This document shows positions 37,600 through 51,050 of a stretch of DNA of 64,000 nt, piece after piece. Numbering within the stretch: the stretch's first letter is position 1; each line of letters starts with the position of its first letter. A program made the translations under genes and the position numbers. This DNA comes from Deltaproteobacteria bacterium. GTDB lineage: Bacteria; Desulfobacterota; GWC2-55-46; DRQE01. The notes beneath the pieces are model-generated. The model was not told the DNA's origin. It searched no databases and saw only the letters and a list, made by a program, of their open reading frames with translations. The stretch covers positions 13,418 through 77,417 of the forward strand of contig WGFM01000006.1 in the NCBI GenBank assembly GCA_015492245.1, written 5' to 3'.

Positions 37600-38604
37600 A
37601 TGAAGATAGCCATAACATGCAACATAAAGGCAGAGGTTCCGCCTCATCTCGAAGAATGCTATGCCGAATGGGACGACCAGGAGACCATAGAGAGTGTCAG
37701 AGAGGCACTGCTTGAAAGATGCCAGGAGGTCTTCATCGTAGAGGCAGACCAGCATGCCCCCGCAAGGCTTCAGGGTCTCATGCCCAATATGGTCTTCAAC
37801 ATGGCCGAAGGTATGGGCGGAGACAGCAGGGAATCATTCATCCCGGCAATCCTCGAGGTTCTGGGAATACCCTATACAGGCTCACCACCACTCACCCTGG
37901 GGCTGTGTCTCAATAAACTGAGGACAAAACAGATACTCTCCTGCTACGGGATACCAACGCCACGCTGTTTCGTGGTAGAAAGTGAATACAGGGGTATGGA
38001 AGGAGGGCTTGAGTTTCCCCTGATAGTCAAGCCTGTCCACGAGGGCTCGAGCAAGGGGATAAGGGATGACTCCCTTGTCCGTAGTGAAGAGGAACTTGTC
38101 GAGAGGATACACAGGGTCATTGACACCTACGGGCAGCCCGCCCTTGTGGAGGAATACCTCGATGGAAGGGAGTTCACCGTGGCCATTCTTGGCAACGCAG
38201 ATGATATAAGGGTCTTGCCCATAGTGGAGATAGACTACTCCACCATACCAGAGGGGGCAAACCCCATATACTCCTATGAGGCCAAATGGATCTTCGATCG
38301 GCCTGAGGACCCGCTCGACATATTCCGCTGTCCCGCACCGATAGACAAGGAGCTTGAAAGGGCGGTATCAAACATGGCACTGGACTCTTTCCGTGCCCTT
38401 GGTGTGAGAGACTGGTGCAGAATAGACATAAGATGCGACTCTCGGGGCAGACCCCATGTGCTGGAGCTCAATCCCCTGCCCGGAATCCTGCCTGCTCCAC
38501 AATGTAACTCCTGCTTTCCCAAGGCCGCAAGGGCTGCGGGGCTTACTTTCAGCGAGCTTGTAAACACCGTGGTTGATATTGCAAGAAAAAGGCATGGAAT
38601 ATGA
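37600..38604 (+). CDS. ATP-grasp ligase, D-alanine-D-alanine ligase-like (paralog 1)
   Basis: N-terminal Ddl-type domain (KIAITCNIK..), a central ATP-grasp (PLIVKPVHEGSSKGI, EEYLDGREFTV) and C-terminal ELNPLPG. Confidence 0.7.
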   Translation: MKIAITCNIKAEVPPHLEECYAEWDDQETIESVREALLERCQEVFIVEADQHAPARLQGLMPNMVFNMAEGMGGDSRESFIPAILEVLGIPYTGSPPLTLGLCLNKLRTKQILSCYGIPTPRCFVVESEYRGMEGGLEFPLIVKPVHEGSSKGIRDDSLVRSEEELVERIHRVIDTYGQPALVEEYLDGREFTVAILGNADDIRVLPIVEIDYSTIPEGANPIYSYEAKWIFDRPEDPLDIFRCPAPIDKELERAVSNMALDSFRALGVRDWCRIDIRCDSRGRPHVLELNPLPGILPAPQCNSCFPKAARAAGLTFSELVNTVVDIARKRHGI

Positions 38605-39617
38605 GTGTAGATACCATAAGGATAATATTCAACGACGAAGGGGCCGACACATTCGTGGTGGACGACGAAGAGATAGAATACGGCGATATAAGGGAGAGCG
38701 TGGAGGATATAGGGGAGTGTCTCGAAAGGCTGGGGTATCGCACCATACTGACACCCCTGACACAGGAAGGGTTCGATGGGTTCCTCAAAGAACTCACCGA
38801 TGGCAGGGCTGAGCTTGTGTTCAACCTCTGTGAAGGTGCCTTCCTCAACAGCAAGTTCGAGATGAACATTGCAGCCCTCCTCGAGCTCTATGGCATAAGG
38901 TTCACCGGAAACACCTCTATAACACTTGGGGTGGCGCTGAACAAGGGATGGACAAAGGACATCCTCAAAGGGGCTGGAATAAAGACCCCTGCCCACTTCG
39001 TAACAGATGAGCCAGGCACATGGCTCCCAGAGGGACTTGAGTTCCCACTCATAGTGAAGCCACTCTCAGAGGATGCAAGCCTTGGCATAGAGACAGACTC
39101 TGTGGTATATACCGCAGGTGAGCTCTCGAAAAGGATAGAGCACATACTGGAGGAGTATTCTCACCAGGCCCTTGTGGAAAGATTCATAGATGGCCGTGAG
39201 TTCAACATATCCATAATGGGTAACGATGATGCGGTGGTGGTGCTTCCACCTTCAGAGATAGACTTCTCCGAGTACCCGGAAGAACTGCCACGAATATGCT
39301 CCTACGAGGCAAAATGGATAGAGATAAGCCCCCTGTATCGCAAGACCCTTCCTGTGTGCCCTGCCCCTGTATCAGAGGAGCTTAAAAAGGGGCTCGAGGC
39401 AACTGCCATCAGGGCATACAGGGCGCTCTCCTGCAGGGACTATGCACGGGTCGATATGAGACTCGACCAGGAAGACAACCTCTGGGTGCTCGAGGTAAAT
39501 CCGAATCCCGACATATCGAAAGATGCGGGCTTTGCAAGGGCAGCCAGGGCGGCAGGAATGGAGTATCACCAGTTCATAGGAGAACTCGTAAGTATTGCGG
39601 CAAAAAGATACGACTAA
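38601..39617 (+). CDS. ATP-grasp ligase, D-alanine-D-alanine ligase-like (paralog 2)
   Basis: Same architecture as paralog 1 (PLIVKPLSEDASLGI, ERFIDGREFNI, LEVNPNPD). Its start overlaps the paralog 1 stop (ATGA). Confidence 0.7.
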   Translation: MSVDTIRIIFNDEGADTFVVDDEEIEYGDIRESVEDIGECLERLGYRTILTPLTQEGFDGFLKELTDGRAELVFNLCEGAFLNSKFEMNIAALLELYGIRFTGNTSITLGVALNKGWTKDILKGAGIKTPAHFVTDEPGTWLPEGLEFPLIVKPLSEDASLGIETDSVVYTAGELSKRIEHILEEYSHQALVERFIDGREFNISIMGNDDAVVVLPPSEIDFSEYPEELPRICSYEAKWIEISPLYRKTLPVCPAPVSEELKKGLEATAIRAYRALSCRDYARVDMRLDQEDNLWVLEVNPNPDISKDAGFARAARAAGMEYHQFIGELVSIAAKRYD

Positions 39618-40089
39618 ACCCATCATACGCAGCACCACCAGAGAGGACAGGGAACACTTCCTCTCCATACTCAAGGGGTTCGAACACTTTACAGATGAAG
39701 AAAAGGATTGTGCCATAGAGCTACTTGATATATACTTAAAAGAGCCGTTTGAATATCTATGGCTTACAGCCCTTGTGGAAGGTCAACCCGTGGGCTTCGC
39801 CTGCTATGGAGAGGCAGCCCTTTCCTACGGAGCATACGATATATACTGGATAATGGTAGAGCCCGCCTGGCATCACCGCGGGGTAGGTAAACGCCTTATG
39901 GAACAGGTGGAAGAAGAGGCCCTCAAGGCAGGTGGAAGGAAGCTCATAATAGAGACCTCAAGCCTTCCCCTTTATGCAGGAGCAAGGCGTTTCTACAGAG
40001 TCTGTGGCTTCACAGAAGAGGCAAAAATAAGAGATTACTACAGACCAGGAGACCACAAGCTCATATACACGAAAACCCTGAGGAGGTAA
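39595..40089 (+). CDS. GNAT family N-acetyltransferase
   Basis: Acetyl-CoA binding motif HHRGVGKRLMEQVEEEA. Confidence 0.65.
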   Translation: MRQKDTTKPIIRSTTREDREHFLSILKGFEHFTDEEKDCAIELLDIYLKEPFEYLWLTALVEGQPVGFACYGEAALSYGAYDIYWIMVEPAWHHRGVGKRLMEQVEEEALKAGGRKLIIETSSLPLYAGARRFYRVCGFTEEAKIRDYYRPGDHKLIYTKTLRR

Positions 40090-40095
40090 GAAACC

Positions 40096-40713
40096 TTGGA
40101 AATAGAAGCAGTAAAGAAGATATACAATGGTTATTCCAGTGTATACGAGGCCCTGTTCAAACGGTTCTTCTACCCCAGGATAAAACATGCCATACAGTCC
40201 ATGAATATACAGCCCGGGGAATGGGTGCTCGATGTGGGGATAGGTACAGGGCTTTCGCTGAATGTATTTCCAGGGCACTGCAAGATAGTTGGCATAGATC
40301 TGTCAAGGGAGATGCTCAAAAAGGCCCAGGAGAAGGTAAGAATCCTTGGACTCCACAATGTACAGCTGTTCGAGATGGATGCCATGAACCTCAACTTTGC
40401 AGACGATAGCTTCGATAAGGTCTTTATCTCCCATGTGGTGAGTGTGGTGCCAGACCCCTACAGGGTGATGAACGAGGTAAAGAGGGTCTGCAAAAAGGGT
40501 GGCAGGATAGTCATAGTGAATCACTTCCGCAGCAGCAACAAACTCATAGGGAATCTCGAAAAGTTCATAACACCACTCAGTAAAAGGATGGGCTGGCGGA
40601 GTGATCTTGCCATGGATGAGTTCATAGCGAAGAGCGACATCAGGGTTGAAAAAAAATTCAAGCTCAAGAAGATAGACTTCTGGCACCTTATATTTGCAAC
40701 CAACGAAAAATAA
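40096..40713 (+). CDS. Class I SAM-dependent methyltransferase
   Basis: VLDVGIGTG glycine-rich motif I. D at the end of the IVGIDLS strand. Confidence 0.7.
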   Translation: MEIEAVKKIYNGYSSVYEALFKRFFYPRIKHAIQSMNIQPGEWVLDVGIGTGLSLNVFPGHCKIVGIDLSREMLKKAQEKVRILGLHNVQLFEMDAMNLNFADDSFDKVFISHVVSVVPDPYRVMNEVKRVCKKGGRIVIVNHFRSSNKLIGNLEKFITPLSKRMGWRSDLAMDEFIAKSDIRVEKKFKLKKIDFWHLIFATNEK

Positions 40714-40727
40714 AACCGGTACAAGAC

Positions 40728-41225
40728 TTGCATGCAACGGACAGACAGAGGCCCCTCTCTGTAAGGATCCTTCCCATGAGCGAGGAAGACATGGACGAAG
40801 TGATAAGGATCGAAGGGCTCTCTTTTCCCAACCCCTGGCGGCGGGAGTTCTTCGAGCGGGAGCTCAAAAACCCTGTATCCTACGCCTTTGTTGAGAAGAT
40901 AGAAGAACGGGGCAGACCAAGGCTTGTTGCATACATTGTCTTCTGGATAGTTACAGGAGAGGCACATATACTCAACATAGCCGTTGACCCGGAGCTGCGC
41001 AGGCAGGGCCTTGCAAGAAGACTCCTTGCAACGGCACTGGCCTTCATGGAAGAACGGGGGGTGGAAGTGGTCCACCTCGAGGTAAGGAGGTCCAACAGGG
41101 CAGCGATAAGCCTTTACAGAAAGTTCGGCTTCGAAGAGGTATACATAAGAGAAAACTACTACGGCAACGAAGATGCCATAGTGATGAGGCTTGTCTTCAG
41201 ATACAAAAGCCGTATCATCCCATAA
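40728..41225 (+). CDS. GNAT acetyltransferase, RimI-like (ribosomal-protein-alanine N-acetyltransferase family)
   Basis: IRIEGLSFPNPW and HILNIAVDPELRRQGLARRLL RimI-like motifs. The real start may be the internal Met at about 40776. Confidence 0.65.
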   Translation: MHATDRQRPLSVRILPMSEEDMDEVIRIEGLSFPNPWRREFFERELKNPVSYAFVEKIEERGRPRLVAYIVFWIVTGEAHILNIAVDPELRRQGLARRLLATALAFMEERGVEVVHLEVRRSNRAAISLYRKFGFEEVYIRENYYGNEDAIVMRLVFRYKSRIIP

Positions 41226-41234
41226 GAGAGCTTT

Positions 41235-41993
41235 ATGACCACCATCAGTATAACGGAGACCGTAGAGGTAATATCCAACATAGCCATATCCCCGGGTTAC
41301 CACAGGATAACCCTGGGCTGGACCCCCCTTGAGGTAAGGCCTGGCCAGTTCGTGATGCTCAAGACAAGCCCCACCATGGACCCACTTCTCAGAAGACCCT
41401 TTGCCATATACAACATCCATGACGATGGGACGGAGATACTCTACAGGGTGGTTGGTAGAGGCACCGCCCTTCTGTCCAGACTCAAAAGAGGAGACAGGCT
41501 TGATGTGCTCGGCCCCCTTGGCAAGGGGTTCGAGCTACCAGAGGACAGGGAGACCATCATGGTTGCAGGTGGTATGGGCATCGTGCCATTCTACATGGTG
41601 GCAAAGGAACTCCTTAAGATGGGCAAGACCACGCAGCTCATCTACGGTGTACGAAGGGAAGAAGAGTTGATACTTGCAGATGATATAATAGGGCTCGGCA
41701 CAGAGGCACACCTTGTGGTAGAGGAAAGGGACAACATGCTGCCCACAGACATACTGGAAGAGATGACCATAGGCGACAGAAGAGTGCTTGCATGTGGGCC
41801 AGGGGGGATGCTCAAGAAGGTGGCCTCCCTGTGTGAGGCCAGGGGTGCAGAGTGTATGGTATCTGTCGAGACCAGCATGGCCTGTGGCATGGGTGTGTGC
41901 ATGGGATGTGCAGTGAAGACCACAGATGGATACAGGATGGTATGTGCCGATGGGCCTGTCTTCGATGCGAAGGAGCTTGGATGGAAGGGCTGA
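41235..41993 (+). CDS. pyrK: Dihydroorotate dehydrogenase electron transfer subunit
   Basis: FAD/NAD-binding FNR-like fold and a C-terminal 2Fe-2S Cys cluster (CGMGVCMGCAVK). Confidence 0.9.
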   Translation: MTTISITETVEVISNIAISPGYHRITLGWTPLEVRPGQFVMLKTSPTMDPLLRRPFAIYNIHDDGTEILYRVVGRGTALLSRLKRGDRLDVLGPLGKGFELPEDRETIMVAGGMGIVPFYMVAKELLKMGKTTQLIYGVRREEELILADDIIGLGTEAHLVVEERDNMLPTDILEEMTIGDRRVLACGPGGMLKKVASLCEARGAECMVSVETSMACGMGVCMGCAVKTTDGYRMVCADGPVFDAKELGWKG

Positions 41994-42910
41994 ACACCAC
42001 GGTCCAGATAGCAGGGGGGTTCGTGCTCAAGAACCCGGTGATGGTCGCCTCGGGCACCTTTGGTTACGGGCTTGAGTTCGCAGGGCTCATGGACATCTCC
42101 CTGCTCGGGGCTGTCGTTGTAAAGGGGCTCAGCCTCAGGCCCAGGGAGGGAAACCCTCCACCCCGTATCATCGAGACCCCCGCAGGTCTCATAAACGCCA
42201 TAGGGTTACAGAACATAGGGGTGGAACGCTTCCTGAAGGACAAACTCCCAGAGATTAAAAGGCTCGGTGCCACCGTTGTGGCGAACATCTTTGGCGAGTC
42301 CATAGATGAATACAGTGAGGTTGCCCGCCTGCTCAGCGGGGCAGAGGGCGTAAGTGCCATAGAGATAAACATATCCTGCCCGAATGTGAAAAAGGGGGGG
42401 CTCAGGTTCGGTCAGGACCCTGCCTCTGCCAGAGAGGTGGTGGAGGCCGTAAGAAAATCCACAGAGCTACCGATTATAACCAAGCTCTCTCCGGATGCAC
42501 CTGATCTCAAGGCGATGGTAGAGGCGGTGGAGTCTGCAGGCACGGATGCCATATCCCTCATAAACACCATACCTGCCATGGCCATAGATGTGGAAAGAAG
42601 GCGCCCCGTCTTATCGACCATGACAGGGGGACTATCAGGGCCTGCCATAAAGCCCATAGCCTTGAGGCTTGTGTGGCAGGTTGCAGGATTCGCGAAGGTG
42701 CCTGTAATAGGCATGGGCGGGATAATGACAGGCCGTGATGCCCTTGAGTTCATAATTGCAGGGGCCTGCGCCATTCAGGTGGGAACCCTCAACCTCGTAG
42801 AGCCAGATGGTGCACTCAGGGTGATAAGGGAGATGGAGGCCTACATGCACAAGAAGGGCATCAGAAGTATCGGAGAGCTTACTGGCTCGCTTGTCCTGCC
42901 AGAGAGATGA
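41981..42910 (+). CDS. pyrD: Dihydroorotate dehydrogenase catalytic subunit (class 1B)
   Basis: LKNPVMVASGTFGYG start and FMN-binding motifs. It overlaps the pyrK stop. Confidence 0.9.
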   Translation: MEGLNTTVQIAGGFVLKNPVMVASGTFGYGLEFAGLMDISLLGAVVVKGLSLRPREGNPPPRIIETPAGLINAIGLQNIGVERFLKDKLPEIKRLGATVVANIFGESIDEYSEVARLLSGAEGVSAIEINISCPNVKKGGLRFGQDPASAREVVEAVRKSTELPIITKLSPDAPDLKAMVEAVESAGTDAISLINTIPAMAIDVERRRPVLSTMTGGLSGPAIKPIALRLVWQVAGFAKVPVIGMGGIMTGRDALEFIIAGACAIQVGTLNLVEPDGALRVIREMEAYMHKKGIRSIGELTGSLVLPER

Positions 42911-43952
42911 CGCTTATCTTTCCGGCCACCTTCTTTGCAATCTCCATGAACGCCTTTGCCTGTGGAGAGTCTGGAAGGCCCTCCACAACCGGAATCCCCT
43001 TATCGCCACCTTCTCTTATGGATGGGTCTATCGGTATTGTGCCCAGAAGTTCCACGCCGTATCTTTCGGCCGTCTTTTCTCCTCCGCCGTGGCTGAATAT
43101 CTCTGTCTTCTCGCCACAGTGGAGACATACGAAACAGCTCATGTTTTCCACTATACCCAGTATGGGCACATTCACCTCTTTGAACATCCTTATGGCACGC
43201 CTTGCATCTATGAGGGCCACATCCTGCGGGGTGGTTACAACGACTGAACCTGTAAGTGGTATCGTCTGCACAAGGGTCAGCTGTGCATCACCTGTGCCTG
43301 GTGGAAGGTCTATAACGAGGTAGTCCAGCTCTCCCCATGCCACACCCTTGAGGAACTGCTGGACCAGCTGCATCACAAGGGGGCCTCTCCATATAAGTGG
43401 TGTCTCTTCATCGAGCATGAACCCCACGCTCATGAGCTTTACCTCATGGCTCTCCACGGGGATGAGCTTTTTATCCTCTGTGGTGTGCACCTCCTTGTGG
43501 ACACCCATCATCATGGGCACACTTGGCCCGTAGAGGTCTGTATCGAGAAGACCCACCTTCGCCCCTGTCTTTGCAAGAGACAGTGCGAGGTTTACCGAAA
43601 CGGTGGATTTTCCAACCCCACCCTTTCCACTTGCCACTGCTATGGTATTCTTTACCCCTTCTATGGGCTCTTTCTGTGGCACCCTCTTCGCCTTCGGCAC
43701 CTCTGAGGACACATCCACCGTAACCTCCTCCACCCCTGGCAGGGCCTCAACGGCCTTTCTTGCGCCCTCTTCGAGCTCCTTTTTGAGCGGACATGCAGGG
43801 GTTGTGAGCACAAGGCTGAACCTTACTTTACCGCCATCTATCCTTATGTTTCTTATCATGTTAAGCGTTACAAGATCCTTGCCCAGCTCAGGGTCCATAA
43901 CCTTCTTGAGTGCATCGAGCACCTGGGACTGTGTAACAGCAGGTCTTTCCAT
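42879..43952 (-). CDS. apbC: Mrp/NBP35 (ApbC) family Fe-S cluster carrier ATPase with N-terminal DUF59/MIP18 domain
   Basis: VASGKGGVGKST Walker A and the CxxC motif (CFVCLHC). It overlaps the convergent pyrD 3' end by about 30 nt. Confidence 0.9.
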   Translation of the reverse strand: MERPAVTQSQVLDALKKVMDPELGKDLVTLNMIRNIRIDGGKVRFSLVLTTPACPLKKELEEGARKAVEALPGVEEVTVDVSSEVPKAKRVPQKEPIEGVKNTIAVASGKGGVGKSTVSVNLALSLAKTGAKVGLLDTDLYGPSVPMMMGVHKEVHTTEDKKLIPVESHEVKLMSVGFMLDEETPLIWRGPLVMQLVQQFLKGVAWGELDYLVIDLPPGTGDAQLTLVQTIPLTGSVVVTTPQDVALIDARRAIRMFKEVNVPILGIVENMSCFVCLHCGEKTEIFSHGGGEKTAERYGVELLGTIPIDPSIREGGDKGIPVVEGLPDSPQAKAFMEIAKKVAGKISVISLAGQASQ

Positions 43953-43956
43953 CTTT

Positions 43957-44634
43957 CTATTCTCCTTTGGTCTTTAGCCATCTATCCTCGCAAAGTGTGT
44001 CTCCCTTTACAAGGCTCTTTGTCTTCACATGTTTTATGCCATCTATTGCATCACAGAAGCCATCCACCCATCTTGATAGATACTCGCACATGAGTCTTTC
44101 GTCAACATGTACATTCTGCCAGTATCTTCGATGCAGGCACCTTCTGTGTCTTTCTATGAATTCTCTGTTTGGCCTCTGCTCGATCTCTATTACATCATCA
44201 GAGGGCATACCATCGAGGAAGAAGTTTCTCAATATGGTATAGACCCTCTCTGGCAGGGGGTTACTAATCTCGTATTCTTCAGTTGCTTTTCTTCCTTTTG
44301 TTCTGCCGTGCCGGTATGCCACCTTCAGAACAAACTTTTCTGCCCTGTTGCCGAATTCTTCTATAAGGGCCTTTATTATGGCCGCCTCCCTGGTCTCCAC
44401 CCGTTCCACCGAATCTACAAGGAACTCCTGTACAGGCATGTTTGCCACCAGTCTTTCCAGAGGTTCATCAAGGTATCTGCCGTATTTTCTGGCCATCTCA
44501 GCCACCACACCGGTAGCCCTGTTGCCAAACCTCTCTGTGAATTCTCTGCGCAAGAACCTTTCCCTCTCTTCCACTATGAGTATCTTTCCAAACAGCCACT
44601 GATGAACAGGCCCCAGAAAAAGACTCATCGGCAA
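43957..44634 (-). CDS. Hypothetical Cys-rich protein (four C-terminal Cys, C-x16-C-x10-C-x20-C)
   Basis: 225 aa. No confident family assignment. It ends 4 nt before apbC. Confidence 0.35.
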   Translation of the reverse strand: MPMSLFLGPVHQWLFGKILIVEERERFLRREFTERFGNRATGVVAEMARKYGRYLDEPLERLVANMPVQEFLVDSVERVETREAAIIKALIEEFGNRAEKFVLKVAYRHGRTKGRKATEEYEISNPLPERVYTILRNFFLDGMPSDDVIEIEQRPNREFIERHRRCLHRRYWQNVHVDERLMCEYLSRWVDGFCDAIDGIKHVKTKSLVKGDTLCEDRWLKTKGE

Positions 44635-44702
44635 TGCTCCTTACTGTGGTATTGCCAGGGCTTCGTGTCTGTATTTGGTAGGGTAAGGTAGACGGTTCCC
44701 TC

Positions 44703-44909
44703 TCAAGATATCTCTTCTGATGCAACCCTGTTGAGTTCTTCTAAGAGTTCCTCGAGGGGGGCCCCGTCTCTACGGGCTGCCTCTTCGAGGGTTGCCATGC
44801 CTCCACAGCACGAATCTATGTTGAACCTGGTAAACACCCCTATGGTTTTAGGATGGTCCCTTATCACATCGTTGACTATCCTGTCTTTGGTTATCTTTGC
44901 AACCTTCAT
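44703..44909 (-). CDS. DUF1858 (hybrid-cluster-protein-associated redox disulfide domain) protein
   Basis: 68 aa. IGVFTRFNIDSCCGGMATLEEAA matches the DUF1858 pattern. Confidence 0.55.
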   Translation of the reverse strand: MKVAKITKDRIVNDVIRDHPKTIGVFTRFNIDSCCGGMATLEEAARRDGAPLEELLEELNRVASEEIS

Positions 44910-45124
44910 TGTGCCTCTTCACTCTCCTCTGCCACTTCGTTCAGTTCTTTGAGTATCTCCTCCACATCCACCCCGTGCATCGTTGCACCAAAGGCTATGT
45001 CTTCTGTTTTTGCTCCCGGGCATGTAAAACATCCTGCCCCGAAGTACTTCATAAATACCTTCTCTGTTGCAGGATATTTTTCGAGCACCTCACCTATGCT
45101 CATCTCTTTTGTTATCTTCGACAT
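44906..45124 (-). CDS. DUF1858 family protein with CxxC (CFTCPG)
   Basis: 72 aa. IGEVLEKYPATEKVFMKYFGAGCFTCPG..MHGVDVEEILKELN is typical of DUF1858. It overlaps its paralog by 4 nt. Confidence 0.55.
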   Translation of the reverse strand: MSKITKEMSIGEVLEKYPATEKVFMKYFGAGCFTCPGAKTEDIAFGATMHGVDVEEILKELNEVAEESEEAQ

Positions 45125-45147
45125 ATCTTTAAACCTCCTTTAAATTT

Positions 45148-45561
45148 TTATTGCGGTTTTCTGAAGGCCGGTGCTGGTTTTATGGTCATGAACATGTTCA
45201 ACACAAACAACACGACAGACACCCCCTCGATGAGTGCGAACACATGAAGCACCGTTATTCCTCCATTACCTGTTCCCATTATAATCCAGCCCAGCGCCAT
45301 GCCTACAAGGCCTATGTTCGCCGTCCATAGCTGAACCATTGCGAGCCTGTCGCTCCACAGCGGTGTTCCGCTGAACCTTGGCAGTATATGGTAGCCCACA
45401 CCATATATCATCATGCTCATCCATCCAAGCAGATTGAAGTGTGTATGTATGGGCCTCATGGGATACACCGGGCCAGAGATGGTCATGTATATACCCATCA
45501 ACATGGCTATCACAAAGTATACCATTGCACATTTTATGAACCATACCGTAACCTTGCTCAT
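45148..45561 (-). CDS. Four-TM membrane protein with conserved His motifs (H-T-H, G-Y-H)
   Basis: 137 aa. HTHFNLLGWMSMMIYGVGYHILPRFSG. Confidence 0.4.
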   Translation of the reverse strand: MSKVTVWFIKCAMVYFVIAMLMGIYMTISGPVYPMRPIHTHFNLLGWMSMMIYGVGYHILPRFSGTPLWSDRLAMVQLWTANIGLVGMALGWIIMGTGNGGITVLHVFALIEGVSVVLFVLNMFMTIKPAPAFRKPQ

Positions 45562-45582
45562 GGTAATTCTCCACCTTCTATG

Positions 45583-45774
45583 TTATTTTGCTCCTTCTGC
45601 CTTTTCGGGCATGGGCATACAGGCTTCCACCGGACATACCTCTGCACAGGCACCACACTCGGTACATAGAGAAGGGTCTATCCTGTATGGACTACCCTCT
45701 GTTATGGCACCTTCGGGACACTCGTTCATACAGGCACCACACTCGATGCAGTTATCCAGAATATAGTAAGCCAT
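45583..45774 (-). CDS. 2[4Fe-4S] ferredoxin
   Basis: Two CxxCxxCxxxCP motifs (CIECGACMNECP, CTECGACAEVCP). A strong AAGGAGGG RBS. Confidence 0.85.
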   Translation of the reverse strand: MAYYILDNCIECGACMNECPEGAITEGSPYRIDPSLCTECGACAEVCPVEACMPMPEKAEGAK

Positions 45775-45831
45775 CTACCCTCCTTGCAAGGGAATTCTTA
45801 ATATATACTCCTTATATCCATACTCAACGAG

Positions 45832-46059
45832 TTATACAGAGAGGACCTCTTTTATCTCAGGCACCCTCTCCTTTATCGCCCTTTCAACGCCCATAACCAG
45901 TGTTATCTGGGCACTGGGACAACCTGCACAGGCCCCCTGAAGCTGAACCTTTACGATACCATTCTCCTCGTCCACATCCACAAGGCTCACATCGCCTCCA
46001 TCCGCCTGGAGCGCAGGACGAATACTGTTAAGTGCCTCTTCTACCCTCTCTCTCAACAT
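45832..46059 (-). CDS. NifU-like (Nfu-type) Fe-S cluster scaffold domain protein
   Basis: 75 aa. GGDVSLVDV..GACAGCPSA motif of NifU C-terminal domains. Confidence 0.8.
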   Translation of the reverse strand: MLRERVEEALNSIRPALQADGGDVSLVDVDEENGIVKVQLQGACAGCPSAQITLVMGVERAIKERVPEIKEVLSV

Positions 46060-46288
46060 ATTGTATGTACCTCCTTGTTTATTACAAAAGTGTTCGATTA
46101 TTATAACAAATTATATCTCCCTTTCAACCACTAAAAAATGATACATGTCAAAATTCGAAAGATTTTCCGTCCCAACCCTGTGGCAGACAGTCTTCCCTTG
46201 CATATGTACTTCATTATTTTTTGTGGTAAATACAGGGTATTATGTGCTATCATCTGGAATTATTCCTTTGTAAAAGGAGGAATTTTCC

Positions 46289-47647
46289 GTGGCAACTCTC
46301 GATTCTTCAAAGAGGCTTGCCTATGGCTGGCTCGCCTATGCGGTGGGTTCATTGATATTTGCGGGCATATTCGCCCTTATGGTTGCACTGGCAAGGACAC
46401 CCTACATAAAGGACATGCTGCCGGGGGGGGATTACTTCTACATAGCCCTTGTGGGGCATGTCATACTTGCGGTGGTCATATGGTTTCTTGCCTTCGAGGG
46501 GTTTTTGTGGCTACTTACCTCTGCCATGGATACATCCACCCCTGTGATAAGCCCTCTTGTTGGCTGGTTCTCGCTTGTGCTTTCGGCAGGGGGGACAACC
46601 CTCATAGTAATATGCGCACTTTTGGGGCTTGGCTATCCAGAGCTTGCAAACTATGTGCCTGTCATAATCCATCCACTGTTTTTCACAGGGCTTTCTCTGT
46701 TTACAGCAGGCATTATACTTATCCTTTTGAATACCTTTCTCACCCTTGGGAGCGCACTCGGAAGGGGTGCATCATTTCCCATCGTAACCCGTGGTATGGC
46801 CGTGGCAGCGGTTACCGTTACAGTCGCCCTCGTCTGTTTTTTCCTTGCAGGTTACCTGCAGTATACTCGCAAGGGGTTCTTCGACTTCGAAAGGTTCTTC
46901 TGGGGTGGTGGGCACATACTGCAGTTTGCAAATACCATGGCGATGGTCGTCAGCTGGCTCTATCTGGTAAAGATAGTCTTTAGAAAAGATGCCATAGGAT
47001 TGAGGCTGGGCACCGGGGCCTTTCTGTTCTATCTTGTCTTTGTGCTACCCGCACCGGTTATATACTTCCTGTACGATACAGCCTCATACGAATACAAGAC
47101 CGCCTTCACCATGCTCATGCAATGGGGCATAGGGCCTCCAACGGCATTCTTCCTAATAGCCATACTGTATCTTCTCTACCGATACAGGAACAAGGGGCTG
47201 CCCTGGGCAAGGCCGGGGTTTTCTTCCCTTGTGCTCTCGGTCGCCATATTCCTTCTTGGCGGGCTTATAGCACTGGATATAAGCGGGGTGAACACCAAGA
47301 TTCCAGCGCACTACCACTGTGCAATAGGGGCTGTAACAATAGCATTCATGGGGCTTTTCTACGAGGTGGTTCCCTTCTTCGGGCTTCGTATATACAGTGA
47401 GAAGATGGCCCGCATCCAGCCCTACCTCTACGGGCTGGGTATACTGCTATTTGCCATGGGACTCTACATAGCAGGCTGGTATGGTGCCATGCGAAAGGTC
47501 TATGGACAGGACCAGGCCTTCGAAAGCGTGGGAGAACTCGTGGGAATGGGTATAATGGGGGTGGGCGGGCTCGTTGCCATAGCAGGTGGAATATACTTCG
47601 TCCTGAATGCACTGCTCACATTCCTTGGGGGCAGAAGGAATACTTGA
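46289..47647 (+). CDS. 12-TM membrane protein with heme-copper-oxidase subunit I-like His motifs (incomplete ligand set)
   Basis: GTG start with AAGGAGG 8 nt upstream. Motifs VGHVIL (helix II-like His), FWGGGHIL (W..GH as in HCO helix VI) and HYHCAIGAVTIAFMGLFY (compare COX1 helix X H-x-H..GAV..MGGF). No adjacent H-H pair is present. Confidence 0.45.
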   Translation: MATLDSSKRLAYGWLAYAVGSLIFAGIFALMVALARTPYIKDMLPGGDYFYIALVGHVILAVVIWFLAFEGFLWLLTSAMDTSTPVISPLVGWFSLVLSAGGTTLIVICALLGLGYPELANYVPVIIHPLFFTGLSLFTAGIILILLNTFLTLGSALGRGASFPIVTRGMAVAAVTVTVALVCFFLAGYLQYTRKGFFDFERFFWGGGHILQFANTMAMVVSWLYLVKIVFRKDAIGLRLGTGAFLFYLVFVLPAPVIYFLYDTASYEYKTAFTMLMQWGIGPPTAFFLIAILYLLYRYRNKGLPWARPGFSSLVLSVAIFLLGGLIALDISGVNTKIPAHYHCAIGAVTIAFMGLFYEVVPFFGLRIYSEKMARIQPYLYGLGILLFAMGLYIAGWYGAMRKVYGQDQAFESVGELVGMGIMGVGGLVAIAGGIYFVLNALLTFLGGRRNT

Positions 47648-49844: not shown

Positions 49845-49872
49845 GCGGGCTCCGTGCCCGCACATCTTTTTT
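49845..49872 (+). terminator. Rho-independent terminator after iscU
   Basis: GCGGGC-tccgt-GCCCGC hairpin followed by ACATCTTTTTTG. Confidence 0.7.
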
Positions 49873-49883
49873 GTTTGAAAGCC

Positions 49884-51050
49884 ATGAAGAACAGACGCGT
49901 AATTGTGGCAATGAGCGGAGGGGTGGACTCCTCGGTGGCAGCCATCCTTCTGAAAAGGGCTGGCCACGAGGTGATAGGCATATCCATGCAGTTGTGGGAC
50001 TACTCGGAAAAGGAAGACCTGTCAGCAACCAGGGGTAGCTGCTGCTCACTTGAGGACATATGGGATGCCAGAAGGGTGGCCGAGACCATCGGCATACCAT
50101 TCTATGTGCTCAACATGGAGAAGGTCTTCTCCAAAGAGGTGGTGGACTACTTCGTGAAGAGCTACCTTACAGGTGAAACCCCAAACCCGTGTGTAAAGTG
50201 CAACTCGGAGATAAAGTTCAACATCCTCTTAAGAAAGGCATTTGAGCTCGGTGCAGAATATGTTGCAACAGGCCACTATGCAAGGATAGTAAAGGATGCA
50301 TCCGGCAGGTACCACCTCTTAAGTGGCGTGGACAGGACAAAAGACCAGTCCTACTTTCTGTTCAGCCTCACCCAGAATACCATGGCGCATGTGCTATTCC
50401 CTCTGGGAGAGCTGACAAAGACAGAGGTAAGAAAGATAGCAAAAGAGGCAGGGCTCAAGGTCTCAGAGAAGGGCGAAAGCCAGGAGATATGCTTCGTAGA
50501 AGATGGCAACTACCGTAACCTCCTTGCAGAGCGGGCAGGCACAAGGGAAGGCAGAATTGTGGACACCAGTGGCACTCTTCTGGGCCACCACACAGGGCTC
50601 TTTGGATACACCATAGGCCAGAGAAGAGGGCTCAACATAAAAGACGGCAAGGGGCCATACTATGTGGTCTCTATGGATACAGAGAGAAACGAGCTCATTG
50701 TGGGCAGAAAGGAAGAACTCCTTTCCTGTGGGCTTTATGCACGGGAGCTCAACTGGATAAAAGAGCCACCAGCGGCACCTCTTACCGTTGAGGCCAGGAT
50801 TCGCTACCGCCACAGCCCTGTGGATGCCATCGTTACACCACGCACCGACGGTGGGGCCGTGGTCAGGTTCTTGAGCCCACAGGGGGCTGTAACCCCGGGG
50901 CAGGCTGTGGTATTCTACAGGGATGAGGAGGTCCTCGGGGGCGGATGGATAGAAAGGGCCATAAGGGAGTCTGATGAAAAGGATGCAGAAGAGCTTTGCA
51001 ATCAAGACCCTCGGGTGCAGGGCAAACCAGTACGATTCCACAGCCCTTGA
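49884..51050 (+). CDS. mnmA: tRNA 2-thiouridine(34) synthase
   Basis: [15 protein letters not shown]-loop and catalytic Cys residues. The start is taken downstream of the terminator; the ORF-track start at 49854 lies inside the hairpin. Confidence 0.9.

Follow-up and report, generated by a model that had tools for sequence, protein, structure and literature searches.

Seven genes lying head to tail on the minus strand of a Deltaproteobacteria bacterium genome are predicted to form a single conserved operon with a conserved operator of the CRP/FNR type. They occupy positions 46059 to 42879 of the DNA analysed here, a stretch of 64,000 nucleotides (nt) from contig WGFM01000006.1 (assembly GCA_015492245.1, positions 13,418 to 77,417) which we call the window. 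Their products are a NifU-like and an ApbC/Mrp-type carrier of iron-sulfur (Fe-S) clusters, a ferredoxin, a four-helix membrane protein related to heme-copper oxidases and referred to here as sHCO, two small thiol proteins, and a protein of an unnamed family, p223. The operon is an extended form of a widespread core composed of sHCO and one or two DUF1858/ScdA_N proteins of about 70 amino acids. We propose tentatively, with a probability of about 0.4, that it serves in Fe-S cluster repair or re-supply and is induced by a redox signal, O2 or nitric oxide (NO). Full-text literature searches (DUF1858 with heme-copper, ScdA_N with NifU and cbb3, four-helix or threefold ancestry of heme-copper oxidases) returned no description of the cluster, of the small oxidase-arc protein or of the p223 family. 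The operon and sHCO are undescribed in the searchable literature, though their parts belong to known superfamilies.

Gene content and organisation

The genes and their closest family assignments are, in the order of transcription:

45832..46059, minus strand: Nfu-type NifU C-terminal domain protein, 75 amino acids; PF01106 103.3 bits against a gathering score of 27, E 7.8e-30
45583..45774, minus strand: 2x[4Fe-4S] ferredoxin, 63 amino acids; NF058577 (FdxA_fam) 76.2 bits against a cut-off of 65
45148..45561, minus strand: sHCO, 137 amino acids, four transmembrane helices, homologue of the helix IX-XII arc of heme-copper oxidase subunit I; Pfam COX1 PF00115 46.8 bits against 34.8, E 2.5e-12
44906..45124, minus strand: DUF1858/TIGR03980 "hybrid-cluster-protein-associated redox disulfide" protein, 72 amino acids; PF08984 E 2.9e-17, TIGR03980 67.2 bits against 44.95
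44703..44909, minus strand: stand-alone ScdA_N protein, 68 amino acids; PF04405 56.7 bits against 32.5
43957..44628, minus strand: p223, 223 amino acids from ATG 44628 (225 from TTG 44634); H-NOX/Bet3/V4R-like fold, unnamed family bordering PF14196
42879..43952, minus strand: ApbC/Mrp Fe-S carrier ATPase, 357 amino acids; NF008669 (ApbC) 368 bits against 348, PF10609 E 3.7e-108

An original prediction, made from the sequence letters alone, had described seven co-directional genes between 42879 and 46059, and all of these open reading frames (ORFs) are indeed present on the minus strand of the window. Read from the sequence, the intergenic gaps in transcription order are 57, 21, 23, -4, 74 and 4 nt, the negative value being an ATGA overlap of the DUF1858 stop with the ScdA_N start, and an AGGAG-like Shine-Dalgarno sequence precedes each of the seven starts. 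The earlier upper limit of 68 nt for the gaps holds if p223 starts at TTG 44634. The ATG at 44628 is the likelier start, since gene-called relatives of 70-74% identity are also 223 amino acids long and begin MSLFLGP while most of the distant relatives begin MSxFLGP, and from there the widest gap is 74 nt. No terminator-like hairpin was predicted on the minus strand within 42879-46059, and promoter-like matches between 42000 and 48000 stand at background level (8 compared with 6.7 +/- 2.6 in shuffled sequences). The 3' end of mrp overlaps the convergent pyrD gene by 32 nt (42879-42910), which leaves no room for a terminator; this overlap is kept in the related loci L001, L002 and L004. Scattered homologues or internal terminators, either of which was to have counted against a single gene cluster, were not what we found: gene order is conserved across genomes (see below), which rules out a chance juxtaposition of the seven genes, and the cluster is not split by an internal terminator.

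Six of the seven proteins exceed curated family cut-offs (Pfam, NCBIfam), the exception being p223. Among them are the predicted scaffold or carrier (Nfu), carrier ATPase (ApbC/Mrp) and ferredoxin, whose initial assignments therefore stand. The two cysteines of the NifU CxxC motif, C44 and C47, are invariant in 45 homologues, and the ferredoxin translation includes two CxxCxxCxxxCP motifs, CIECGACMNECP and CTECGACAEVCP. The ApbC/Mrp protein carries an N-terminal DUF59 domain (PF01883, E 5.9e-27), a deviant Walker A motif, GKGGVGKS, and a C-terminal CxxC motif, CFVCLHC. It is not an MrpORP protein of the ORP system, scoring 327.9 bits with the NF041136 equivalog model, whose cut-off is 450.

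The two small thiol proteins are of the RIC N-domain type and belong to the DUF1858/ScdA_N superfamily. Both had been listed as DUF1858, which is correct for the 72-amino-acid protein, where the CxxC cysteines C32 and C35 and also H50 are invariant in 48 homologues. In Bradyrhizobium, a free-standing DUF1858 gene ranks among those that depend most strongly on NnrR (PMC6710368). The 68-amino-acid protein scores 31.2 with the DUF1858 model (cut-off 32.2) and is instead a ScdA_N protein. Its motif D32-S-C-C-G-G37 (DSCCGG), invariant in 47 homologues, matches DfCCgG, the signature of the N-domain in RIC proteins (PMC9268430). It is not a RIC protein proper: it lacks a hemerythrin domain, and the RIC equivalog models give only 32-48 bits, with cut-offs of 205-259. 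Finally, the "His-rich membrane protein" left uncharacterised in the original prediction is now identified as a heme-copper oxidase subunit I homologue with only four transmembrane helices, and the "Cys-rich protein" has only four cysteines, is likely to be 223 rather than 225 amino acids long and has an H-NOX/D27-like fold.

Conservation of the cluster

A pattern scan of one genome per GTDB species provided 80 loci, whose ORFs were classed with phmmer and with jackhmmer profiles of the window proteins. The 39 loci with an sHCO of at least 50% identity are called here the close clade and the other 41 the distant loci; neighbours were counted within 3.5 kb. Close-clade members are uncultured and carry metagenome-assembled genome labels of Deltaproteobacteria or Thermodesulfobacteriota. 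The three closest lineages (70-74% identity on p223) have kept all seven genes together with the divergent heme-copper oxidase gene and the Rrf2 gene described below, and those carrying source labels are from hydrothermal-vent metagenomes. About 35 of the 39 close-clade genomes have the genes in the order NifU-Fdx-sHCO-DUF1858-ScdA_N-(p223)-Mrp, most of the misses being due to contig ends. Individually, NifU is present in 36, the ferredoxin in 34, DUF1858 in 32, ScdA_N in 35, Mrp in 35, the divergent oxidase homologue (HCO452) in 22 and p223 in five.

The distant loci belong to Nitrospirota, Nitrospinota and Planctomycetota/Brocadia. Here sHCO occurs alone or with DUF1858, ScdA_N or NifU, and it adjoins one of these three in about a third of the 41 loci, mostly those labelled Nitrospirota. 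Two other neighbours recur: a sigma-54 activator following NifU-sHCO-DUF1858, and a NIR_SIR/Fer4 protein following sHCO-ScdA_N-DUF1858. In Nitrospinota, mnmA lies directly upstream of sHCO (L057 and L079, and, judged by ORF size, L056 and L085). In the window, mnmA (49854-51050) closes the iscRSU block which lies beyond HCO452, so that a link between sHCO and sulfur-trafficking genes recurs in varied arrangements. Six Planctomycetota/Brocadia loci (L080, L081, L083, L086, L088 and L089) show sHCO followed by a co-directional gene for a 638-amino-acid BcrAD_BadFG/HGD-D fusion, with a 447-amino-acid HGD-D protein in four of the six.

A conserved operator of the CRP/FNR type

The region upstream of nifU includes the following elements:

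46139..46150, minus strand: 12-bp palindromic operator TGACATGTATCA, a CRP/FNR/HcpR-type box; family consensus ATGAY-N4-RTCAT
46110..46115, minus strand: -10 element TATAAT of the putative class II promoter P1, read from the sequence; predicted start near 46103
46100..46127, minus strand: sigma-70-like promoter P2, TTGAAA (46127-46122), 16 nt spacer, TG-n-TATAAT; 11 of 12 consensus positions, extended -10 TG

Aligned regions upstream of nifU share the palindrome, with the consensus AAnATGACnnAAATCATnTATTA. Of 89 loci, 65 have a TGAY-N4-RTCA match in the 300 nt that precede the first cluster gene; the background, calculated over 1 Mb of loci, is 0.04 per 300 nt. The distance from the box to a TATAnT element is fixed at 22-24 nt across 61 non-redundant loci, Nitrospirota included, which places the centre of the box at about -41.5, the class II position of activators of the CRP/FNR family. 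The transcription start assigned to P1 in the window, near 46103, is a prediction rather than a mapped position. The TTGAAA of P2 is likewise kept across the close clade. Visual inspection of the sequence on the HCO452 side of the box revealed no -10 element spaced as for class II.

This box lies upstream of other genes too: DUF1858 genes transcribed separately (L058, L070, L075 and L087) and a p223 homologue (L095). It is also found about 100 nt upstream of a large Bcr-like gene in L027 and L041, and none was found upstream of sHCO in the six Brocadia-type loci. Genes of the CRP/FNR family lie immediately downstream of sHCO in five Nitrospira-type loci. Another exact match in the window, at 41236, falls in the start codon region of pyrK and was judged coincidental. 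The operator thus conserved defines a testable regulon.

One distant locus deserves mention in its own right. L047 (1957-8390) includes a CRP/FNR regulator, a hemerythrin gene with a box 66 nt upstream, and a box-preceded unit composed of a YwiC-like membrane protein, ScdA_N and sHCO. As judged from its gene content, this would be equivalent to a RIC protein split into its two halves, each encoded apart but with the same operator.

sHCO, a free-standing arc of the oxidase fold

The sHCO family is large: it includes more than 1000 clusters at 90% identity, and relatives are present in at least 567 GTDB species, among them Nitrospira, Nitrospina and Brocadia. Across 81 sequences, drawn from several phyla, three histidines never vary: H39, H41 and H58. 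When compared with the Protein Data Bank (PDB) using phmmer, sHCO matches the cbb3 oxidase subunit CcoN, best at residues 339-394 (helices X-XI), with which it has the heme-ligating HxH and the motif YH(L/I)(I/L)P in common (sHCO stretch HTHFNLLGWMSMMIYGVGYHILPRFSG). Weaker matches fall on the corresponding parts of the other two four-helix arcs of CcoN, the first and the second. Profile-profile alignment with hhalign places sHCO on residues 327-397 of HCO452 with a probability of 95% and 30% identity, and its last helix on residues 419-445. The AlphaFold2 model has four transmembrane helices (pLDDT 84.5), and its best Foldseek matches are CcoN chains (TM-score 0.54-0.56, root mean square deviation 3.4-3.7 A, about 118 columns), followed by NorB.

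In real oxidases, the helix IX-XII arc bears the HxH pair which ligates both hemes. sHCO is a conserved free-standing copy of this arc. Of the 12-helix, six-histidine oxidase core it has four helices and the helix X-type HxH only, and it cannot be an oxidase on its own. With more than 1000 conserved full-length clusters and their invariant residues, it is not a gene fragment or pseudogene. Nor is it a recent split-off from HCO452: the two share 30% identity over 71 aligned residues, sHCO being C-family-like and HCO452 B-family-like.

sHCO would probably bind heme through H39 and H41. In real oxidases, the low-spin heme is held by a helix II histidine and the second histidine of helix X. One way in which sHCO might approach such a site is by forming homo-oligomers, in the simplest case trimers that imitate the 12-helix core with its pseudo-threefold symmetry; oxidase-type b-hemes would then be held between H39 of one protomer and H41 of its neighbour. 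We regard this arrangement as unlikely, but its consequences would be considerable. HCO452 would then be a second undescribed branch of the oxidase/NO-reductase superfamily, and sHCO either a living model of the ancestor from which that superfamily arose by triplication or a reductive derivative of it. sHCO would also be a membrane-embedded counterpart of the RIC hemerythrin domain, with DUF1858 and ScdA_N docking at its invariant cytoplasmic YHILPRFSG face, where NO or O2 would be detoxified, or iron or electrons moved for Fe-S repair.

p223

This protein is part of the same functional neighbourhood as the other operon genes, though as a variable accessory. It has no match in Pfam or NCBIfam. 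A word-indexed search recovered three close clusters only, whereas a full HMMER search with a three-sequence profile recovered 409 representatives at E<=1e-3, mostly full-length and of 200-225 amino acids. Of 35 aligned relatives, 14 match PF14196 (ATC_hydrolase) weakly (best 2.5e-8), and the window protein does not match at E<=0.01; p223 therefore represents a family bordering PF14196 rather than a member, and is not identified as an ATC hydrolase. Sequence and profile searches of the PDB gave nothing meaningful.

The AlphaFold2 model of p223 (pLDDT 95.9, pTM 0.92) consists of six helices and a four-stranded sheet. Foldseek relates it to H-NOX, to TRAPP Bet3 and to the V4R-type sensor domains of PoxR and MopR, with probability 1.0, E of about 1e-3 and TM-scores of 0.4-0.55. 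The likeness to H-NOX is equalled by that to Bet3 and the V4R-type sensors. Neither p223 nor any of the 35 relatives matches the HNOB Pfam family, so that p223 is not an H-NOX member by sequence. Cysteines 143, 164, 181 and 213 are conserved in the family, and the window copy keeps C164, C181 and C213.

Distant relatives occur in several contexts: after a NIR_SIR-DUF1858 fusion, before NifU, beside a cysteine desulfurase-ThiI pair with a hemerythrin gene nearby, and in the order sHCO-DUF1858-ScdA_N-CopD-p223. The last is a compact cluster (L090, 182-2422) in which the membrane protein between ScdA_N and the p223 homologue is CopD/UPF0093-like and two boxes lie upstream of sHCO.

Neighbouring genes

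Divergently from the operon, the window includes:

46289..47647, plus strand: HCO452, 452 amino acids, B-family-like heme-copper oxidase subunit I homologue; PF00115 E 2.9e-24, 86.2 bits
47693..51050, plus strand: iscR (Rrf2)-iscS-iscU-mnmA block; Rrf2 PF02082 E 7.7e-41

The location of the operon, divergent from an oxidase-like gene and beside iscRSU, is as originally described. The iscR product scores 161.8 bits with the IscR model, below the cut-off of 207.55; iscS, iscU and mnmA were assigned from their translations and from Aminotran_5 in the syntenic locus L005.

A phmmer search of the PDB with HCO452 found no oxidase, and the Thermus thermophilus ba3 enzyme was reached by the family profile only, which aligns end to end with ba3 subunit I (E 2e-32). 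In this alignment H57 takes the place of the heme b ligand, H209 that of the helix VI CuB ligand and H341/H343 that of the helix X pair. The helix VII histidines of ba3, HH282/283, are aligned to Y/F, and its cross-link Tyr237 to F. H57, H209, H341 and H343 are the only histidines invariant in 33 homologues, and the window protein has none between 209 and 341. HCO452 thus retains four of the six canonical oxidase histidines; two of the three CuB histidines are absent, as is the cross-link tyrosine. A 2024 survey of the superfamily called gNOR, in which one active-site histidine is replaced, the first such case (PMC11214002); HCO452, without two of the three, lies beyond the diversity covered there.

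In about 20 close-clade loci (among L006-L008 and L010-L044), the divergent arm consists of HCO452 followed by a UbiA-family gene, a small cytochrome c gene and a gene for a protein of about 1400 amino acids (BcrAD_BadFG x2 + DUF2229). No UbiA, cytochrome c or Bcr-like genes were found in the window, where iscR-iscS-iscU-mnmA is present instead.

Upstream of pyrK/pyrD, at 37600-41225, the window includes a conserved block of two D-Ala-D-Ala-ligase-type ATP-grasp genes, a GNAT gene, a methyltransferase gene and a second GNAT gene. In L002 (5357-11501), the ATP-grasp/GNAT block is followed by a pyruvoyl arginine decarboxylase, an arginase-family gene and a deoxyhypusine-synthase-like gene. The block may be a polyamine-modification cluster. 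A scan of the entire window (1-64000) with Rfam gave no family at the gathering score, and therefore no rRNA, riboswitch or other known RNA family; tRNAs had no separate scan.

Possible function of the operon

The original prediction suggested a dedicated system for Fe-S cluster delivery or repair. Its repair component gains from the ScdA_N protein with its DSCCGG motif, from the class II position of the CRP/FNR-type operator and from the hemerythrin, CRP/FNR and NIR_SIR-like genes in related loci, while the function itself remains an interpretation. We propose that a regulator of the CRP/FNR family responding to O2, NO or nitrite would switch the operon on. The ferredoxin would be a source of low-potential electrons, and DUF1858 (through its CxxC) and ScdA_N (through its CC) would work on damaged or nitrosylated Fe-S centres, or on iron that these release, at the side of sHCO facing the cytoplasm. 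As membrane partner, sHCO would take the role that the four-helix di-iron hemerythrin domain has in RIC. Nfu and ApbC/Mrp would carry clusters rebuilt by the adjacent IscS and IscU to target proteins, and p223 might be an accessory component binding an Fe-S cluster or a small ligand. If this is correct, Fe-S repair or re-supply in many uncultured anaerobes and in nitrogen-cycle bacteria runs via an unstudied membrane-associated module.

Several points weigh against this proposal. Every functional step proposed for the members is inferred, including that sHCO binds heme, that the parts associate physically, which signal induces the operon and how the repair proceeds chemically. A complete oxidase-type heme pocket is beyond what a single four-helix arc can form alone. 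Within the window alone, the box with one mismatch is not enriched (7 occurrences, 7.35 expected), so that its significance rests on conservation across genomes, and the near-consensus promoter P2 overlaps the operator region, so that the genes could be expressed for the most part constitutively. The 64-kb window showed no hemerythrin, hcp, nor or CRP/FNR genes, the CRP/FNR search being made with jackhmmer from E. coli FNR and CRP seed sequences. Codon 143 of the window p223 (44200-44202) specifies serine (LDGMPSD), while the relatives of 70-74% identity and most of the family have cysteine (LDGMPCD); one of the four putative ligand cysteines is therefore missing in the window lineage. The neighbours of sHCO in Brocadia (BcrAD/HGD-D enzymes) and Nitrospinota (mnmA) are quite different from those in the window. 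In addition, Nfu, ApbC and ferredoxin genes beside iscRSU equally fit a housekeeping Fe-S pathway.

In its full form, this last explanation makes the operon a constitutive late branch of the ISC/MIS pathway, in which sHCO and the small proteins assist the everyday delivery of clusters, to membrane proteins for instance. The position of the cluster directly beside iscRSU-mnmA, the scores of Nfu, ApbC and Fdx above curated cut-offs and the strong sigma-70-like promoter (11 of 12 positions) are all consistent with it, as are mnmA directly upstream of sHCO in Nitrospinota and the p223 relatives that adjoin NifU or a cysteine desulfurase-ThiI pair. What argues for conditional control, however, is a CRP/FNR-type box that spans phyla and sits where class II activators bind; hemerythrin genes and free-standing DUF1858 genes carry this box as well, the stress-induced RIC proteins are the only other known setting of ScdA_N, and most close-clade clusters lie not beside iscRSU but beside HCO452, UbiA, cytochrome c and the Bcr-like gene. 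We find a housekeeping role doubtful. The operon might also be an assembly or accessory module for HCO452, in which sHCO and the thiol proteins insert or protect its cofactors or sHCO is an extra subunit, with the Fe-S carriers serving electron-input partners. HCO452 is divergent from the operon in 22 of the 39 close-clade loci, many of which continue with the UbiA-family and small cytochrome c genes, and sHCO is homologous to its helices X-XII. This explanation is improbable, since sHCO is found with DUF1858 or ScdA_N in many genomes without an adjacent HCO452, L006 and L007 keep the operon with HCO452 not adjacent, no class II-spaced -10 element was seen on the HCO452 side of the box, and HCO452 has 12 helices and its own HxH and so would have no need for a complementing arc. 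The membrane metalloprotein originally imagined as the client is dispensable to the interpretation, as many genomes have the sHCO core but lack the divergent oxidase-like gene, which is adjacent in only two of the 41 distant loci (L055 and L074).

Two further possibilities concern signalling and a particular class of enzyme. The chance seems slim that sHCO, with heme, and p223 sense NO or O2 at the membrane and relay the signal via the thiol proteins to regulators, the Fe-S genes being merely co-regulated cargo. The H-NOX/V4R-like sensor fold of p223 and the CRP/FNR genes adjoining sHCO in Nitrospira-type loci speak for such a role, and so does the sigma-54 activator after NifU-sHCO-DUF1858 in the Nitrospirota-labelled locus L070 (ORFs of similar size occur in L058, L075 and L078). 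Set against them, p223 has no HNOB match, shows TM-scores to H-NOX of only 0.4-0.5 and is present in only five of the 39 clusters, and no output domain is fused to any of the parts. Slimmer still is the chance that the operon supplies electrons and clusters to ATP-dependent Fe-S enzymes of the BcrAD/HGD-D (activase/dehydratase-like) type. Such a gene, encoding the protein of about 1400 amino acids, is present on the divergent arm in about 20 close-clade loci and carries a box in L027 and L041, and in Brocadia sHCO is followed by the BcrAD/HGD-D fusion and an HGD-D gene; yet the window has no Bcr-like gene and neither do the Nitrospirota and Nitrospinota contexts.

Comparison with known systems

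The operon shares with the late Fe-S carriers of the ISC pathway (NfuA, ApbC/Mrp and ferredoxin) the Nfu CxxC motif, an ApbC protein above cut-off with its DUF59 domain, a 2x[4Fe-4S] ferredoxin and the adjacent iscRSU genes. It differs in that its Nfu protein is the C-terminal domain alone, in 75 amino acids, and in that the carrier genes are interleaved with those of sHCO, DUF1858, ScdA_N and p223, an arrangement which was not found in full-text literature searches. Like the ORP cluster of Desulfovibrio (MrpORP), it includes an ApbC/Mrp-type ATPase among small metalloprotein genes, and sigma-54 activators lie near some of the related loci, but the operon has no orange protein.

A further parallel may be provided by RIC proteins (YtfE, ScdA, DnrN). 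The operon encodes a ScdA_N domain with the RIC signature beside a four-helix, histidine-bearing partner, and carries a CRP/FNR/HcpR-like operator, as does dnrN in some anaerobes. In contrast to RIC, there is no hemerythrin di-iron domain: ScdA_N is a separate polypeptide and the four-helix partner is an integral membrane arc of the heme-copper oxidase type. The HcpR motif of Geobacter and Desulfuromonas is wyTTGACnnnnGTCAArw, and its regulon includes hcp, frdX and, in some species, dnrN, which encodes RIC (PMC1274295). As in such HcpR/FNR-type regulons, the operon has a core TGAC-N4-GTCA at about -41.5 with a ferredoxin and a RIC-domain gene among the putative targets. The outer positions are usually A...T (ATGAC...GTCAT) here rather than those of TTGAC...GTCAA.

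D27, a beta-carotene isomerase of plants and cyanobacteria, belongs to the same fold group as H-NOX, Bet3 and V4R, and its four cysteines hold a [4Fe-4S] cluster between sheet and helices, in the cavity that H-NOX uses for heme (PMC13254051), which is a precedent for such a cluster in this fold. p223 shares the fold of helices plus a four-stranded sheet, and its family conserves four cysteines in the C-terminal half. It differs from D27, HNOB and V4R in showing no membership at the sequence level, in the spacing of its cysteines and, for the window copy, in having serine at one of these positions. The p223 family is a bacterial addition with conserved cysteines to the H-NOX/Bet3/V4R/D27 fold group.

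Finally, sHCO can be compared with heme-copper oxidase subunit I, as in cbb3 (CcoN) and ba3. It passes the COX1 gathering score and keeps the helix X HxH and the YH(I/L)(L/I)P(R/K) motif of CcoN, but it has four of the 12 core helices, no CuB ligands and none of the partner histidines of helices II and VI. A free-standing four-helix arc with the heme-ligating HxH bears on the origin of the 12-helix pseudo-threefold core, and it is small enough for expression and characterisation.

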